DNA of 64,000 nucleotides from Bacteriovoracia bacterium (GCA_046570105.1 JBKHVI010000001.1:64001-128000); one strand, 5' to 3'. Shown: positions 57,218 to 64,000, numbered from the stretch's first letter. Notes: a model not told the origin generated them from the sequence alone. Numbers and translations are program-made.

Positions 57218-59567
57218 TCAGTGGCTGAGACTCGCAACCGTTTTATGGAAGTTTAATTGGAGAAAAAATCCAAACTTAAAATTCATAACTTTCTTTGCTG
57301 CTGCCATATTGTTGTTCAGTGCTCTCAAGCATTTTGATCACCCATCTTCCAAAAAAACGTCGTGGCATACCACTTATTGGCAATTACCACATATAGATTC
57401 TGCTCGAATGCCTGCTTCAGGAGAAGAGTGTTCACCAAATACTCCCAAGCTAGATGATCTTCAAAGAGAAAATAAAAAGCTAAATCATCTTAAGAGCCAT
57501 TCTATAAAAGGTTTTTGGCTGCATTTTAATTTAGCAAAATTAAGTTTTGCTGAGGCACGCTTTCTTTCATTTTTCCCTGCTGCTCCTCTCCTTCCAGTAG
57601 CGCAACAACTCAAGACTTGCGTCGACATCCCTTGTCTCTTTAATCAGCTATCGCAAGATCAAAGTGGTGAATACGGAGAGCTGGCATGGAACTTCTATCT
57701 TAAAACAGGCATCGCACTTCAATGGAAAGACGGCGAAAACTCATTTAATAAAAATGAACTGCAACTTCTGTGGCAACTAGCTTCGCAACTACCCACTTCA
57801 TTCTTGCATCAAACAAAATTAAGACAGCTGAGTAAGTCTCCGCTGCGCGAAGGGGTTTGCTTCAATACGCACAACTCTGTGGTCGAATTATCGACTCAGT
57901 GTTTAACTCTTGAATCAACGGCAGTAGAGACAAAGAAGATTATTGTCGCTGGCATGGCCGATGCTCTTTATTCTCAACTAAAAATGCCTGAACAATCTCA
58001 GTTCTCTTGGCAAAAGAATACTTGGAAAGAATTGACTCAAGATCGAAAGGCTTTTGCTCAACAAGTAGCTCAGTATATCGTTCAATTTGAAGCCGCTCCG
58101 GAATTGCATTCCTACTTTAAAGAAACACTTTTTAAACGTGATTGGTCTCTCGCCGGAGAGATGCATCGAATGTTCAAAAAAGATCAGTGGCTTTGGCGAG
58201 ACATAAAAAATCGTCATCTTAACGACTGCCTAGATTTACACAAGTCCGCTCTGTTTGAAAAAAAATCACCAAGAGGCATTGCCTCATTATCAGAGCCACA
58301 TCCAATAGCTGTTTGCTTGAGAGAAACTGCGCAACAAGATTTTTTAAAAAACAGACGCCAATGGTTAAGCCAAGAGAATCCACGTCACTGTGAGTGGCTA
58401 AGTTCTTTGCCTTCGGGAGCTGTACCAGTCGATGAATACATCCATCATTGGGAAAAATTACTGACGAGAGATATAGATCAACTTGAATGGCGCTTGAGAG
58501 CAGAAGGGCCTTCGTGGCTGGCACAGCATATCAAAAAAGAAGTTGTACTCGCAAAAATGGATCCCACTTGGGTTTATTTTCAATGTCATGCTTCACAAAA
58601 TCCCAAGGGATGTTACGAGCAAGGACTCACTAATCTTGTGCGAGAGCAGGAGCGTGGCCCTGCTTCAGAAAAAGAAGAATGGCTTAACGACTATCCATTT
58701 GAATCACTCGAAGAAAGAGTGAACGAGGATGTAGGTATAAAGCGTCAGTGGTTTTTAAGTCACATTGAAGAGGACGCAGAAAAGGCTTGGAGTCATTGTT
58801 GGCGGCAAGGGCCAAATGAGATGGTACTTTTAAAATCATCTCCACAATGGATTAGCTCAGGCGCTGAATATGTCGATGGGAAATTCGCTACTTGCTTGGA
58901 AAATGCTTCCGCAAGACTTGTGAGTCAGATTATTAAAGATAATTCACCCGAGTCGCTATTTTGGCTAAAAGAGCTCAAATCACCACTAAAAGACTGGTGG
59001 AAAAAGAAAATTCAAACCGAAGCAAATAAAGAACGCTCATGGCTTCTGCAGCAATCTGAACTAATTAAATCTAATCTTTCACAAGACTTGCTAAGTCAGT
59101 TGAAAGGTCACCAGAATTTTAGCGTCAACGCTCAATGCTTAAATCGCTTATCTTATCATTATCCTACTCGCATGTACTTCCACGAGCGTCGACAACTCAA
59201 TCAAAATTTTGGTGTGCGACTTTGTAAAGAAGTACTCGCAACGGTTTCTATGAAGAAAGCGGTTGGCTCTTATAAAAAAATGCGATGGAACAACTTCGGA
59301 AGCGAATTAACCACACAGTTGCTTACTCGCTGGGAAGATCGTACGCGACGTTTTTGTTTTGGTCGAATTCCTGCACAAGAGATAAGAGATCTCATCGAGA
59401 CGGAAAAGATGAAAGGATGCATGAGAGAGCAATTCGATCTCTCTAGGCCGGAAGCCTCAACAGAAGTCACACAAAAGTTTTCGCTACCAGAGGACAGTCT
59501 TGATGAATTCAAAGACGAAGTCATCACCATAGCTGAAGCCTCACTTTTAGACCAATTACAGAAATGA
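57204..59567 (+). CDS. Large hypothetical membrane-anchored, Cys/Trp-rich helical protein
   Basis: ~787-aa ORF, N-terminal TM, paired Cys; ATGA overlap with rlmC. Confidence 0.75.
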   Translation: MKHPNQWLRLATVLWKFNWRKNPNLKFITFFAAAILLFSALKHFDHPSSKKTSWHTTYWQLPHIDSARMPASGEECSPNTPKLDDLQRENKKLNHLKSHSIKGFWLHFNLAKLSFAEARFLSFFPAAPLLPVAQQLKTCVDIPCLFNQLSQDQSGEYGELAWNFYLKTGIALQWKDGENSFNKNELQLLWQLASQLPTSFLHQTKLRQLSKSPLREGVCFNTHNSVVELSTQCLTLESTAVETKKIIVAGMADALYSQLKMPEQSQFSWQKNTWKELTQDRKAFAQQVAQYIVQFEAAPELHSYFKETLFKRDWSLAGEMHRMFKKDQWLWRDIKNRHLNDCLDLHKSALFEKKSPRGIASLSEPHPIAVCLRETAQQDFLKNRRQWLSQENPRHCEWLSSLPSGAVPVDEYIHHWEKLLTRDIDQLEWRLRAEGPSWLAQHIKKEVVLAKMDPTWVYFQCHASQNPKGCYEQGLTNLVREQERGPASEKEEWLNDYPFESLEERVNEDVGIKRQWFLSHIEEDAEKAWSHCWRQGPNEMVLLKSSPQWISSGAEYVDGKFATCLENASARLVSQIIKDNSPESLFWLKELKSPLKDWWKKKIQTEANKERSWLLQQSELIKSNLSQDLLSQLKGHQNFSVNAQCLNRLSYHYPTRMYFHERRQLNQNFGVRLCKEVLATVSMKKAVGSYKKMRWNNFGSELTTQLLTRWEDRTRRFCFGRIPAQEIRDLIETEKMKGCMREQFDLSRPEASTEVTQKFSLPEDSLDEFKDEVITIAEASLLDQLQK

Positions 59568-60673
59568 GTGGCTGCACCTATTTTGATAAAAACTTATGCC
59601 GCTCATGCTCTGAAATGGATAAAGATCCAACAGAGTTGCTTACTCAAAAAAATATCCTGCTCCAGAATATTTTCAATATCGAGCCTGAAATTTCATCACA
59701 AGGTTCTCTTTGGGGATTTCGTGACAAAATCAAGCTCAATGTTGGGGGAACACTTGAGGCTCCCCTTATTGGACTTCTTTCAGTTGATCTAAAAAATGTA
59801 GCAGAACTTCCTCTTTGCCCTGTTCAAGCAACAACCTTGAATGAATCAATCGCTCCATTAAAAGATTTCATTACACGCTGGAAACTCACACCTTACGATA
59901 TCAATTCACGCAAGGGCGAACTCAAAGGATTAATCCTTAGCTGGTCCCCCACGACAAAACAGAAAATGATTCGCTTTGTATTACGCTCGAAAGAAGCGCT
60001 CGATCGAATTCGACTCGGACTTTCGGAGTTAGGTGAGTTCAATGTCGTTTCAGTTAACATTCAACCCATTCCTCATGCTCTCCTTGAGGGTGAAGAAGAA
60101 ATTGTGCTCTCAACGGCTCAAACTCTTATTCATCAGAGTGGCGACATTCGTTTATCTTTTTCTCCGCAAAGTTTTATGCAAACTAATTCTGCTGTCGCCA
60201 CACAACTTTATCAAACTGCCACAGAATGGCTTTCACCGTGGAAGAACAATCCCGTGCTTGATTTGTTCTGTGGAGCTGGTGGCTTTGCTCTACATCTCGC
60301 GAGCAAGGGACATCATGTTTTAGGTATTGAAATTAATGCTTCGGCGATCAAAGAGGCTCAACGCATGGCCCATGAACTGAAACTATCAGCGCAATTTAAA
60401 GCGGCCGCAGTTGCAAGAATTGAGCACGAATGGACCACATTTGTTCCTCAAGTTGTCCTCGTGAATCCGCCCCGTCGCGGCTTGGGAGAGGCCCTTGACC
60501 TCGTTATGCGCCAACGGCCGGCCATTCTCCTCTACTCCAGTTGTTCATATGAGAGCCTGGCTGCAGATTTTTCGATATTAAAAACTCATTATGACGCAAT
60601 TCGCACAAAAATCTTCGACATGTTCCCTTTCACTAATCATTTTGAGAGCTTAACCCTGCTGGTCCGACGATAG
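59564..60673 (+). CDS. rlmC: 23S rRNA (uracil-C5)-methyltransferase RlmC/RumB-like
   Basis: N-terminal C..CRSC Fe-S motif, LDLFCGAGGF, VNPPRRG, YSSC, DMFP.T.H.E. Confidence 0.88.
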   Translation: MSGCTYFDKNLCRSCSEMDKDPTELLTQKNILLQNIFNIEPEISSQGSLWGFRDKIKLNVGGTLEAPLIGLLSVDLKNVAELPLCPVQATTLNESIAPLKDFITRWKLTPYDINSRKGELKGLILSWSPTTKQKMIRFVLRSKEALDRIRLGLSELGEFNVVSVNIQPIPHALLEGEEEIVLSTAQTLIHQSGDIRLSFSPQSFMQTNSAVATQLYQTATEWLSPWKNNPVLDLFCGAGGFALHLASKGHHVLGIEINASAIKEAQRMAHELKLSAQFKAAAVARIEHEWTTFVPQVVLVNPPRRGLGEALDLVMRQRPAILLYSSCSYESLAADFSILKTHYDAIRTKIFDMFPFTNHFESLTLLVRR

Positions 60674-61450: not shown

Positions 61451-61479
61451 GGCCAAAAGGTGTCACTCACCTTTTGGCC
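61451..61479. repeat. REP-like palindrome GGCCAAAAGGTG-TCACT-CACCTTTTGGCC
   Basis: Perfect 12-bp stem; contains the RAYT stop codon; copies at 11064 and (inverted, variant) 63329. Confidence 0.85.
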
Positions 61480-62089
61480 TTTTTAATGTCTCGAACAGTT
61501 TAATTTTCTTTTTATTAATATCAAACTGCCAACGTCTCAGCCCCTTGCGAATAATCGCTTCACCTTCATTTTCAATTCTCTCATTCAGCCACAGCAACTC
61601 GGCTGCCTCTCCACCTAACTCCATATTCACTCGACTATGTAATGGAAACGGCACTCGCGAAGTGAGTGTTGAATAAGGATAGAATTCCACTCTTTCAACC
61701 ATCCGCGCACGTAATGGATTTTGGTAAATATAGCGATAGACTTGATAATAATAAGCCTGATTCTCAATCAAGCTCCATTTATAGCGTCCTCCCCACAAAT
61801 GATTTGTTCCATCAGCCTTTCTCATAATTTTCACGGCCGTATTTCGCATCAATAGATGCATCACCTGATCTAGATTACATCGCGGCGTTTGAACCAACAG
61901 ATGGAAGTGATTATCCATCAAGACAAATGCATGAATACAAATCCCAAAGCGCTCTTGAACATTTTTAAGTTCATCGACAAAAATTTTCCAAACCTCGTTC
62001 ATCTCAATCGGATAGAACTGCTTGTCATTCGTTCGAGCTGTTACGTGGTAGGTATGAATATCACTGCGAATCAAAGCATTTCTCGGCAT
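61463..62089 (-). mobile_element. REP-associated tyrosine transposase (RAYT; HUH Y1_Tnp family)
   Basis: MPR start, YHVTARTN, HAFVLMDNHFHLL (HUH), YIYQNP.RA (catalytic Tyr), YPYS; flanking palindromes; no tnpB. Confidence 0.92.
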
Positions 62090-62157
62090 AATTACTCCTT
62101 GTAACCCGTTACCTCTTGGCGCTTTTTTGCAGCACCAAGCGGTGTTAAAATTAAAAC

Positions 62158-62268
62158 GGGAAGGAGTAAGCCTGAGGGATTCCCCCCAGACCTAGGTGCT
62201 TGTGACACCAAGAGGTTCACAGAGAACGTGGAACTGACAAAACATGGAGCGTGAGCATGCCCCTTCCC
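62158..62268 (-). ncRNA. Candidate structured ncRNA, array unit 1 (111 nt)
   Basis: GGGAAG.../...CUUCCC closing stem, two internal hairpins, GYUC-repeat loop, 3' U-tract. Confidence 0.65.
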
Positions 62269-62434
62269 GCCTCTCTTGTTGCAAAAAGACGGGAAATTTT
62301 CCGAACACTAACTATTGAATTTTCAACAGGAGTCGTCTCACTGCGTGAGAGATTTTTTCCACTCACATGTCCGTTTTTTACCCGCGACTTGTTGGAGATG
62401 GATGAGACTTACTTCGAGTGATAAAATTAAAAAA

Positions 62435-62545
62435 GGGAAGAGGTAAGCCTTGAGAGATTCCTCTCAAGACCCAGGTGTGAGCACACCAAGAGGTTTAAAA
62501 AGAACATTGAACTGGCAGAGCGGTGAACTTGAGCTACCTCTTCCC
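62435..62545 (-). ncRNA. Candidate structured ncRNA, array unit 2 (111 nt)
   Basis: Same fold with compensatory changes (GGGAAGAGGU/ACCUCUUCCC; CUUGAGAG/CUCUCAAG). Confidence 0.65.
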
Positions 62546-62709
62546 GCCTCTCTTGGTGCAAAGAGACGGGAAAATTTCTACGACTCAACTATTCAAAAAA
62601 ATTCATCCATCACTTCACTGCGTGAGAGATTTTTTCCAATCACTTGTCCGATTTTTACCCGCGACTTGTTGGCGATAGATGAGAGTTCAATCAAGTGATA
62701 AAATAAAAA

Positions 62710-62820
62710 GGGAAGGAGTGGGCCTGAATTATTTAATTCAACCCCAGGGTGCTGTCACACCCAAGGGGTTCACCTGAACTTGGAGCTGGATGAACGTGGA
62801 GCGTGGACCTGCCCCTTCCC
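62710..62820 (-). ncRNA. Candidate structured ncRNA, array unit 3 (111 nt)
   Basis: Same fold with compensatory changes (UGAAUU/AAUUCA; AACCCC/GGGGUU; GGGUG/CACCC). Confidence 0.65.
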
Positions 62821-63018
62821 GCCTCTCTTGGTGCAAAGAGACGGGAAAATTTCTACGACTCAACTATTCAAAAAAATTCATCCATCACTTCACTGCGTGA
62901 GAGATTTTTTCCACTCACATGTCCGATTTTTACCCGCGACCTGTTGGAGATTGATGAGAGCTGGAAGAAAATAATTGGCACTAATTCAATAAAGAACTTT
63001 CTCGTATCTCACACACAT

Positions 63019-63061
63019 AAAAACTAAAAAGCCGAACGTAATTGATGTAACTACGTCCGGC
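63019..63061 (-). terminator. Intrinsic terminator of the candidate sRNA
   Basis: GCCGGACGUAGUU/AAUUACGUUCGGC 13-bp stem (two G-U) then UUUUUAGUUUUU. Confidence 0.75.
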
Positions 63062-63240
63062 TCTTCTATGACGTCCAATGAAGGACGCCTTTACCAAAAG
63101 GAAATTCATGGAAGAGTTAGCGCGGGTTCTGATCCTCGTTATCTTGACGATACAGCTTGCTGTATTGCTCAAGATAATTTGATCGGATTTAGAGGGAGGG
63201 GAAAGCAGCCTCTCCCTCACCGTTTTAACTTCCAATCCTC
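63022..63240 (-). ncRNA. Candidate ~215-nt structured sRNA
   Basis: TTGATT-N18-TATGCT promoter (63276-63247); several strong stems including a 3-way junction; terminator at 63031-63061 plus U-tract. Confidence 0.55.
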
Positions 63241-63280
63241 AAATTCAGCATAGCTCTATTTGAATAAGCGAATCAAACTT

Positions 63281-63313
63281 AAAAAAAAGGCCCGGGTTAA
63301 ACCCAGGCCTTTT
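63281..63313 (-). terminator. Intrinsic terminator after the OMP gene
   Basis: GGCCUGGGUU/AACCCGGGCC followed by U8. Confidence 0.85.
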
Positions 63314-63328
63314 CTACCTAAAAGTGTA

Positions 63329-63353
63329 CCTAAAAGTGCATGACACCTTTTGG
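63329..63353 (-). repeat. Variant REP-like palindrome (inverted), CCAAAAGGTG-TCATG-CACTTTTAGG
   Basis: First 13 nt identical to 61453-61465 in opposite orientation; adjacent 12-bp tandem duplication of its arm. Confidence 0.75.
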
Positions 63354-63358
63354 AAATT

Positions 63359-64000
63359 TTAGAACTTGTAAGTCATAGCGACGCGAGCGAGTAGACGGTT
63401 TGAATTCAAGATTCCGTTACTTGGTGCTGTGTTATTGGTCGCAGTAGCAGCCGAAGTCATCAGCAATCCGTCGATAGCGAAATCACCAAACTTCAAAGTA
63501 GCACCTGAACGGACAGATGTTGTATTCGCTTTGGTACGCTTCTTGTCTGGGTTCTGAGCGACAACGTTTGTGTTAACCAATGGCAATAGGTCTTCATCGT
63601 AGTCGTTGTCTTGCTCATTGATTATACTCTGAGAGATTGAACCACGAAGAGTCAGCCATGAAGCAGCGTCCACTTCTAAACCAACTACGACTGGAACAGC
63701 GTAATCATCAATCGTTGCTTTGCCGTCATCTTTGGTATCAAGCTCACGCTTGTTCAACACATAAGATACTTTATAGAACAAAGTCGCTTTGTCGTTAAGC
63801 TTAGTCTCGCGACCGTAACCCACGATAAAACGATCAGTTTGCGCATCAGCTTCACCTGTATAAGCAGGAGCTGCAGCTGTCGTTGCAACTTGAGAGACAG
63901 AACTCTCTTGTTCCCAAGCAGCGTGGCGCCAGAAAGCAAATACGCTTGCCTGATTGTCGATACGGTATGTTCCACCTAATTCGTAACCAAGCTTACCCTT
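63359..64000 (-). CDS. Outer-membrane beta-barrel protein (major OMP-like), C-terminal part; truncated by window edge
   Basis: Frame open to the edge (214 codons); amphipathic strands PVVVGLEVDAASWLTLRGS, GATLKFG; C-terminal MTYKF. Confidence 0.8.
   Translation of the reverse strand, partial: KGKLGYELGGTYRIDNQASVFAFWRHAAWEQESSVSQVATTAAAPAYTGEADAQTDRFIVGYGRETKLNDKATLFYKVSYVLNKRELDTKDDGKATIDDYAVPVVVGLEVDAASWLTLRGSISQSIINEQDNDYDEDLLPLVNTNVVAQNPDKKRTKANTTSVRSGATLKFGDFAIDGLLMTSAATATNNTAPSNGILNSNRLLARVAMTYKF

Follow-up and report, generated by a model that had tools for sequence, protein, structure and literature searches.

Bacteriovoracia bacterium (GCA_046570105.1 JBKHVI010000001.1:64001-128000) contributes the 64,000-nt stretch of DNA analyzed here, which is called the window below; all positions are counted from its first letter. 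On its minus strand, three head-to-tail units of ~275 nt form a tandem array (62142..62959; Tandem Repeats Finder: period 275, 3.0 copies, 80% matches), of which unit 3 is 5′-most and unit 1 adjoins the gene for a relative of the REP-associated tyrosine transposases (RAYTs; REP, repetitive extragenic palindrome). What is repeated here, and what does it do beside such a gene? Each unit carries an arm in which short words of G, a pyrimidine, and U (G-Y-U) recur at near-constant distances. An original prediction, made from the sequence alone, had described these words as GYUC motifs and proposed that they either bind a protein several times over or frame variable segments for target recognition. 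As argued below, the repeated element is best read, from its sequence and conservation, as a structured RNA of ~125 nt per copy that represents a hitherto undescribed family in Bacteriovoracaceae (Bdellovibrionota).

A spaced row of G-Y-U motifs

When motifs 1-5 were written as one spaced pattern in the degenerate code of the International Union of Pure and Applied Chemistry (IUPAC), exactly three matches were found in the 64-kb window, all on the minus strand and at the positions originally predicted. The number expected was 0.03, and none of 100 dinucleotide shuffles reached three, which rules out a chance origin of the matches. The arm of unit 1 spans 62217..62256 (minus strand), with motifs 1-5 matched at 62225-62256 (62256-62253, 62250-62247, 62243-62240, 62234-62231, and 62227-62224, respectively) and a weak sixth, recognized by column statistics, at 62220-62217. 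The pattern matches for motifs 1-5 in units 2 and 3 lie at 62503..62534 and 62777..62808, respectively, again on the minus strand. The motifs of unit 3 had been predicted in the wrong register, as GGUC-CAC-GCUC; they are present, and the homologue alignment gives GUCC-AC-GCUC.

How strictly the words are kept was read from the alignment columns of 43 distinct homologues, a family that includes the window units. The first base is G in all 43 sequences at motifs 1, 2, and 3, in 42 at motif 5, and in 32 at motif 4. A pyrimidine occupies the second position without exception (43/43) at motifs 1, 2, 3, and 5, with C and U divided 24/19, 23/20, 24/19, and 11/32, respectively, and the third base is U in 38-43 of the 43 across the motifs. 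Since C at the fourth position is invariant only in motif 1 (43/43) and occurs in 30-35 of 43 sequences at motifs 2, 4, and 5, the repeated core of the predicted GYUC word is G-Y-U. Directly 5′ of motif 4, all 43 homologues carry a CA dinucleotide (62236-62235 on the minus strand of unit 1; column statistics). A weaker sixth motif after motif 5 begins with G in 36 of 42 and, once it is counted, the G-to-G distances, 6-7-9-7-6, are symmetric. The spacer columns beside the motifs hold only 0.05-0.7 bits. Fixed spacing had been chosen in advance as a test of the prediction. It holds throughout the 43 distinct homologues, the sole departures being single-base losses from the spacer that separates motifs 4 and 5 in four of these. 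That the arm encodes a small peptide was considered and rejected: of 10 sequences, only 5 have an ATG ahead of motif 1, the distances of 6, 7, 9, and 7 do not go in threes, and whole triplets vary.

A covarying three-way junction and its homologues

The homologues have a common fold, in which a closing stem, P1 (5′ strand purine-rich, 3′ strand pyrimidine-rich), surrounds the arm of ~45 nt and two adjacent hairpins, B and C, making a three-way junction. In unit 1, P1 and the parts it encloses occupy 62157..62269 on the minus strand (5′ strand ~62268-62260, 3′ strand ~62166-62157; inverted repeat, folds, and covariation), with hairpin B at 62209-62195 and hairpin C at 62194-62167 (minus strand; folds and covariation). 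The corresponding parts of unit 2 lie at 62435..62545 (minus strand), where the inverted repeat of 11 nt is 100% complementary, and those of unit 3 at 62710..62820 (minus strand; sequence and fold). Together with an upstream hairpin, A, and a tail, they make up cores matched by the covariance model R2 on the minus strand at 62144..62293 (unit 1; 149.3 bits), 62421..62570 (unit 2; 134.2 bits), and 62696..62845 (unit 3; 130.2 bits); these limits are those of the model matches, unit 1 having been converted from locus L012:1501-1650. The minimum free energy of each unit was below that of its shuffles (z = -3.55, -3.26, and -4.09 for units 1-3, respectively), and none of 200 shuffles was as good.

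In the alignment of the 43 homologues, 93.2% of 1241 cells form standard pairs, compared with 47-60% when the partners were slid by 1-3 columns. Both sides have changed in 28 of 30 pairs, and none of 500 shuffles reached any of the pairing measures. RNAalifold, applied to the same alignment, retained 8 pairs in P1, 3 in hairpin B, and 11 in hairpin C; 20 of these 22 are compensated. Hairpin A, despite being part of models R1 and R2, was dropped; it pairs in only 83.8% of cells, with some double changes. Neither the model structure nor RNAalifold on 45 aligned rows placed a conserved pair in the arm, which agrees with the prediction that it is single-stranded as far as conserved structure is concerned. 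A further predicted detail, a GCUC loop on hairpin B of unit 2, was confirmed, but the homologues do not conserve this loop. At one position of hairpin C, the base pair seen most often is G-U (24/43). Such a position fixes the minus strand as the functional one and is commoner in RNA than in DNA; G-U pairs are also frequent elsewhere.

The three window units are paralogues (mean column identity 85% in a three-way alignment), and the pattern could in principle be a by-product of recent tandem duplication without any function. This has next to no probability: it is contradicted by the retention of the pattern in 43 distinct sequences from several genera, despite repeated changes in both hairpins and in the bases between the motifs.

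The extent of the family was determined with covariance models built from ten cores of four genomes of the genus (R1) and from 18 cores (R2), together with pattern scans; BLAST alone detected complete units in no more than three genomes, all from the same genus, and the models and scans were needed for the remainder. Matches to R1/R2 were obtained in 6 of 151 sampled genomes of the bacterial family. The source genome (G000) has four copies, the fourth isolated on contig C55. A degenerate pattern scan of one genome per species returned 48 stretches, of which R2 confirmed 13, in records labeled Bacteriovoracaceae, Halobacteriovoraceae, Bacteriovorax (Bacteriovorax stolpii), or Peredibacter, and in one case simply "Proteobacteria bacterium"; the other 35 stretches belong to unrelated phyla and are chance matches of the pattern. 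The same scan of metagenome contigs gave 61 stretches, 14 of them confirmed by R2. Altogether, 45 model matches, 43 of them distinct, were collected from 27 loci in Bacteriovoracaceae genomes or metagenome contigs. Rfam 15 had no match anywhere in the window at gathering thresholds. When E values up to 10 were allowed on 62000-63400, the only match within the units was to a microRNA model (17 bits, E = 5), the other weak matches falling on a terminator near 63280. No description of such an RNA was found in literature searches, whose coverage excluded subscription journals. The RNA family, the repeated motif, and the association with a RAYT clade described below are regarded as new.

Loci of the family contain one to three units. 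On contigs of two other public sequencing runs (X3 and X4; likeness threshold 85%, one contig per run), 62427 is joined to 62704, with one unit of 276 nt skipped, which indicates that two- and three-unit arrays coexist among related populations; the two-unit array of a close relative, G007, agrees with this one-unit skip. The inter-unit spacers of ~130 nt (62570-62700 and 62845-62960; units 2 and 3) are near-identical, although the cores they flank have strongly diverged. A central block of ~55 nt is also kept in G007, and a few words of the spacer recur in the opening codons of RAYT. The spacer may derive from a duplicated and decayed RAYT 5′ end, or serve as a regulatory site or promoter.

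Linkage to one RAYT clade

The gene downstream of the array (61463..62089, minus strand) begins ~68 nt from unit 1 on the same strand and encodes a RAYT-like Y1 (HUH) tyrosine transposase of 208 aa. The protein matched Pfam Y1_Tnp (E = 1e-9, 39 bits versus a cut-off of 23) and, with 77.2 bits, stayed just below the cut-off of 80 for NCBIfam REP_Tyr_transpos; its translation shows an H-hydrophobic-H motif and a tyrosine-rich helix. In 12 of 15 genome loci and 9 of 14 metagenome loci, the element is directly followed by a RAYT gene in the same orientation. After identical or overlapping loci had been merged and two over-short ones (L151 and L158) set aside, the linkage amounted to 17 of 21 distinct assessable loci, with 45-80 nt between the last core and the RAYT start codon. 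The RAYT family as such is far more widespread, being present in 86 of the 151 genomes, often in several copies, compared with 6 of 151 for the element, and a search with R2 (filters off) beside 27 other RAYT loci gave no match to the core below E = 0.1.

The linkage is confined to one branch of the RAYT tree. This tree comprised 42 proteins, for which the 30 best loci of the RAYT search, rather than all its hits, were available, and left out two rows with internal stops, duplicate loci, and the frameshifted L074. All 16 element-linked RAYTs on it fall into one clade of 20 (clade A; support 100/100). Two of the other four members lie at contig ends without upstream DNA, and two (G097 and G130) truly are without a core; the element is absent from all 22 rows of the sister clade. 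At L074 (in G069, ~761-1373), the linked RAYT gene is split into two frames, by either a frameshift or an assembly error, and the upstream core is intact. The downstream neighbors of the linked RAYT genes are conserved in two synteny groups, whereas the upstream neighbors differ (thiolase, acyl-CoA dehydrogenase, globin, outer-membrane protein, fatty-acid hydroxylase, AAA ATPase), which means that the linked RAYT is inherited vertically, with the element at its 5′ side. Copies without an adjoining RAYT gene are found on C55 of the source genome, in G135, in G066 (16 nt before a permease gene), and at L146; the genomes G066 and G135 contain no clade-A RAYT at all. This linkage, together with the single-stranded DNA explanation that it invites, is the most important context of the repeats, and it had been missed by the original prediction.

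RAYT and IS200/IS605 enzymes recognize hairpins and short flanking words on one DNA strand. The core might accordingly be a composite module of the REP/BIME type that is used by the RAYT as single-stranded DNA, with its hairpins bound, the G-Y-T-C words serving as iteron-like binding or cleavage sites, and the free-standing copies being rare mobilized ones. The adjacency to RAYT at 17 of 21 loci and its restriction to one clade fit this explanation, as do the varying copy number, with the one-unit-short form in two other runs, and a REP-like palindrome that flanks the RAYT gene and also follows each core. The same palindrome, however, speaks against it. At the 3′ end of the RAYT gene it is perfect and forms a 29-nt hairpin (61451..61479, given without strand; terminator scan and genome copies) that resembles a bidirectional terminator and variants of which follow other genes. 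It is dispersed in the source genome in about eight perfect copies and some twenty variants (read from a listing), among other places on contigs C1, C42, C46, C51, C54, C67, C114, C121, and C124, and a short element related to it comes after each core. Contigs of other metagenome runs enter or leave the locus exactly at the palindrome (ends 61450 and 61480). Since it both flanks the RAYT gene and is dispersed, the ordinary REP-RAYT relation is already filled by another element than the core, and this REP-like family fits the RAYT better. A second RAYT paralogue of the source genome (contig C8, 19502-20110, minus strand; 42% identical) has a different, simple palindrome and no core, from which each RAYT lineage seems to have its own REP class. 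REPs are described as flanking RAYT genes, and single-copy RAYTs and their elements as persisting together by vertical descent (PMC5581495).

In its likeness to REPs, BIMEs, and REPINs, the element is a structured noncoding neighbor of RAYT at a locus that also has a true REP-like palindrome. It differs from REPs, which are short palindromes (~20-40 nt) present in tens to hundreds of copies and often as inverted pairs, in that it comprises ~125 nt, folds into a three-way junction with a ~45-nt arm rather than a simple palindrome, occurs as direct repeats in 1-4 copies per genome, and is found only upstream of the gene and in its orientation, never as an inverted flanking pair. Further points that do not agree with a DNA substrate are the copy number of only four in the source genome, the occurrence in 6 genomes as against 86 for RAYT, the persistence of copies without clade-A RAYT (G066 and G135) along with the two clade-A genes without the element, and the position at which G-U, which would be G-T in DNA, is the commonest pair. 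On balance, a role as single-stranded DNA, the strongest of the alternatives to the preferred reading, is considered unlikely, although it keeps appreciable weight.

The same linkage could also reflect a cis-acting leader of the riboswitch or attenuator type, in which the arm bases, through a tertiary pocket or an alternative pairing, respond to a ligand or condition and thereby set RAYT expression. The constant distance to the RAYT start on the same strand would be expected of such a leader, the junction nucleotides are as highly conserved as those of riboswitch cores, and bases just upstream of P1 in the window can pair with the first P1 bases, a possible alternative structure. Yet periodic motifs with variable spacers are unlike any ligand pocket, RNAalifold gave the arm no covarying partner on the homologue alignment, and the upstream hairpin is the one that RNAalifold did not keep. 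Tandem copies, and copies that are not upstream of a co-oriented gene (C55 of the source genome and G135), do not fit either, which makes a regulatory leader of this type rather improbable.

A still closer tie to the gene is conceivable, namely that the RNA is a dedicated partner of the clade-A RAYT, acting as decoy, brake, or guide for this domesticated tyrosine transposase, with the arm displaying six copies of the short word that the HUH active site, or the surface with which the enzyme recognizes DNA, would normally read on single-stranded DNA. The REP-like hairpin after each core would then be the landing site of the enzyme on the same transcript. Such a partnership is a long shot; if true, it would give the Y1/HUH enzymes their first RNA cofactor or regulator.

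Three other features of the surroundings complete the locus. A second REP-like element (63328..63352, minus strand; sequence and family listing) follows the outer-membrane-protein gene at the far end of the array. Between that gene and the array, an open frame of 24 codons (63108-63182, plus strand) encodes a very hydrophobic peptide, with a hairpin before it and a G/C-rich inverted repeat (63192-63218) after it; this block is also present in G007 (twice) and G010 and may be a small membrane peptide gene or a type I toxin-like gene. On the other side, 1.5 kb from the array, lies a gene of the tRNA/rRNA uracil-5 methyltransferase family (59564-60673, plus strand), which is probably unrelated because other loci have different neighbors.

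What the arm may bind

The combination of invariant motifs, fixed spacing, free spacers, an arm devoid of conserved pairs, and a covarying scaffold is best accommodated by the first of the two functions proposed originally, multivalent protein binding by analogy with CsrB/RsmZ, although the element does not belong to the Csr/Rsm family. The arm would be a binding rail for a protein with several equivalent RNA-binding sites, a tentative reading to which we give somewhat less than an even chance. The three-way junction closed by P1 would hold the arm open, and its six G-Y-U words would be read by a protein with several identical RNA-binding sites, following either the logic of the triplet repeats bound by TRAP and HutP or that of a CsrB-type sponge; the RNA would thereby titrate the protein or place what lies downstream under its control.

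Csr/Rsm sponge RNAs present GGA mostly in hairpin loops. The element resembles CsrB/RsmZ in having many copies of a short motif on one RNA, and often several paralogous RNA genes per genome, as well as in the proposed titration. It differs in carrying G-Y-U in one linear arm; membership in the group was rejected because the arms contain no GGA and no Csr/Rsm model of Rfam matched. The TRAP- and HutP-bound leaders of Bacillus, in which an 11-mer or a hexamer binds repeated triplets, are similar in that short invariant motifs recur at near-constant spacing, are separated by free spacers, and have to be unpaired. The HutP hexamer is described as reading two groups of three XAG motifs, one per face (PMC2425495), and the arm can likewise be divided into two triads (6-7 / 9 / 7-6). 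The differences are a motif of G-Y-U(-C) instead of XAG/GAG, a gap of 9 nt instead of a 12-17-nt linker, a different phylum, and a location of the motifs in a closed three-way junction rather than in a terminator/antiterminator. Neither known system can therefore be assigned: a TRAP-binding leader has 9-11 (G/U)AG triplets with 2-3-nt spacers, from which the element departs in motif and spacing, and a HutP-binding terminator is at odds with the G-Y-U motif and the central gap of 9 nt; the TRAP family (PF02081) and the HutP family (PF09021) were not found in the source genome, which is 87.8% complete, as applies to all protein-family searches reported here. A type III toxin-antitoxin RNA (ToxI-like, with ~36-nt repeats before an endoribonuclease gene) was also rejected, because the units measure 275 nt and the downstream gene encodes a Y1 transposase homologue.

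For the element to bind a protein in this way, it would have to be transcribed. Its position 45-80 nt upstream of RAYT on the same strand suggests that most copies are probably made with, or just ahead of, the RAYT message, that is, as a RAYT leader or from a promoter just before P1; the free-standing copies elsewhere suggest that the RNA can also act alone. An RNA made with the RAYT message would resemble the small RNA (sRNA) cut from the IS200 tnpA leader: the transcript of this Y1 transposase gene is reported to be processed into a small structured regulatory RNA (PMC12594629). In that account, 5′tnpA of Salmonella is likewise a structured RNA with a role of its own, derived from the leader of a Y1-family transposase gene that has ceased to act as a mobile element. 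IS200, in contrast, has no repeated-motif arm, no relation in sequence or structure is expected, and the transcript of the element itself is putative.

Upstream of P1, the rows of the homologue alignment were inspected by eye for sigma-54 promoters, which have GG at -24 and GC at -12 and would be expected of Qrr- or GlmY-like sRNA genes. In 23 of 43, a good -24-like element lacks the -12 GC and is placed such that the transcript would begin with P1; the reverse, a good -12-like element without the -24 GG, is found in 13, among them the three units of the window; six have neither half (some have -10-like hexamers), and one has no upstream sequence. Not one of the 43 rows has both GG and GC. The sigma-54-like element ends 12 nt before P1 in most rows, and a near-perfect -24 half is found at loci L043, L049, L053, L063, L074, L113, and L118, among others. 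The gene rpoN and canonical sigma-54 sites are present elsewhere in the source genome.

The second function proposed originally, a scaffold that presents variable segments for target recognition, would make the element a guide-like or trans-acting, base-pairing sRNA, with the arm as seed and the variable spacers giving each paralogue its own target. LhrC1-4 of Listeria, NsiR1 of Nostoc, and Qrr of Vibrio are near-identical sRNA genes that occur in a row or several per genome and act by base pairing. The element has several copies and short conserved single-stranded motifs in common with them, its arm is G-poor and without conserved pairing, like many seed regions, and the paralogous units of one genome differ mainly in spacers and hairpins, despite their near-identical inter-unit spacers. 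Hfq was not found in the source genome, but Hfq-independent sRNAs exist. On the other hand, these systems pair through C/U-rich or conserved seeds, none is known to be tied to a transposase-like gene, and no relation in sequence or fold is known. Moreover, conserved and variable positions of the arm alternate every 2-5 nt, so that pairing with a conserved target would always be interrupted, and a second base that may be either C or U, next to invariant G and U, is seen more typically in protein read-out. When the arms were compared with the rest of the source genome, the best identity or complementarity was 14 nt (28.2 bits), below the mean of the best shuffled scores (29.0 bits; maximum 32.2). 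The variable segments thus found no counterpart above shuffled controls in a search that covered the 87.8%-complete host genome, not phages or plasmids, and a base-pairing role is regarded as improbable.

Several observations weigh against the arm as a protein-binding rail on an RNA. In single-sequence thermodynamic folding, its mean pairing probability is 0.47, compared with 0.905 for the stems, so that it is not predicted to be fully open, and to this extent the predicted single-strandedness is not supported. The alignment was fitted to the covariance model, which inflates the pair counts, and many of its rows are paralogues or close relatives, so that the counts are not independent events. 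Compensatory changes in the hairpins could, in addition, be explained at the level of DNA, since RAYT enzymes act on single-stranded DNA hairpins. A scan for sigma-70 promoters and intrinsic terminators found none at the units, and the U-rich tail that follows P1 in most copies is missing in several homologues. A search of sequencing runs turned up no RNA run containing the stretch. As to the partner, the HutP, TRAP, and Hfq families went undetected in the searches of the source genome mentioned above, and CsrA, which is present, has no matching sites, as it binds GGA.

RAYTs are widespread, single-copy, vertically inherited relatives of transposases, and their retention calls for an explanation. 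An element that is linked to one RAYT clade across several genera offers a handle on the control of a RAYT, or on a working partner of it. Six G-Y-U motifs at fixed spacing would be, as judged from conservation, a clear and mutable signature of a multivalent RNA-protein interaction, and at least one carrier, Peredibacter sp. HCB2-198 (locus L049), with two units ahead of its RAYT gene, is cultured, which makes the reading testable. To our knowledge, almost no regulatory RNAs or RNA-binding regulators have been described in this phylum of predatory bacteria. In a host in whose genome, as far as it is complete, Hfq was not detected, the partner of the arm could reveal a new family of RNA-binding proteins.

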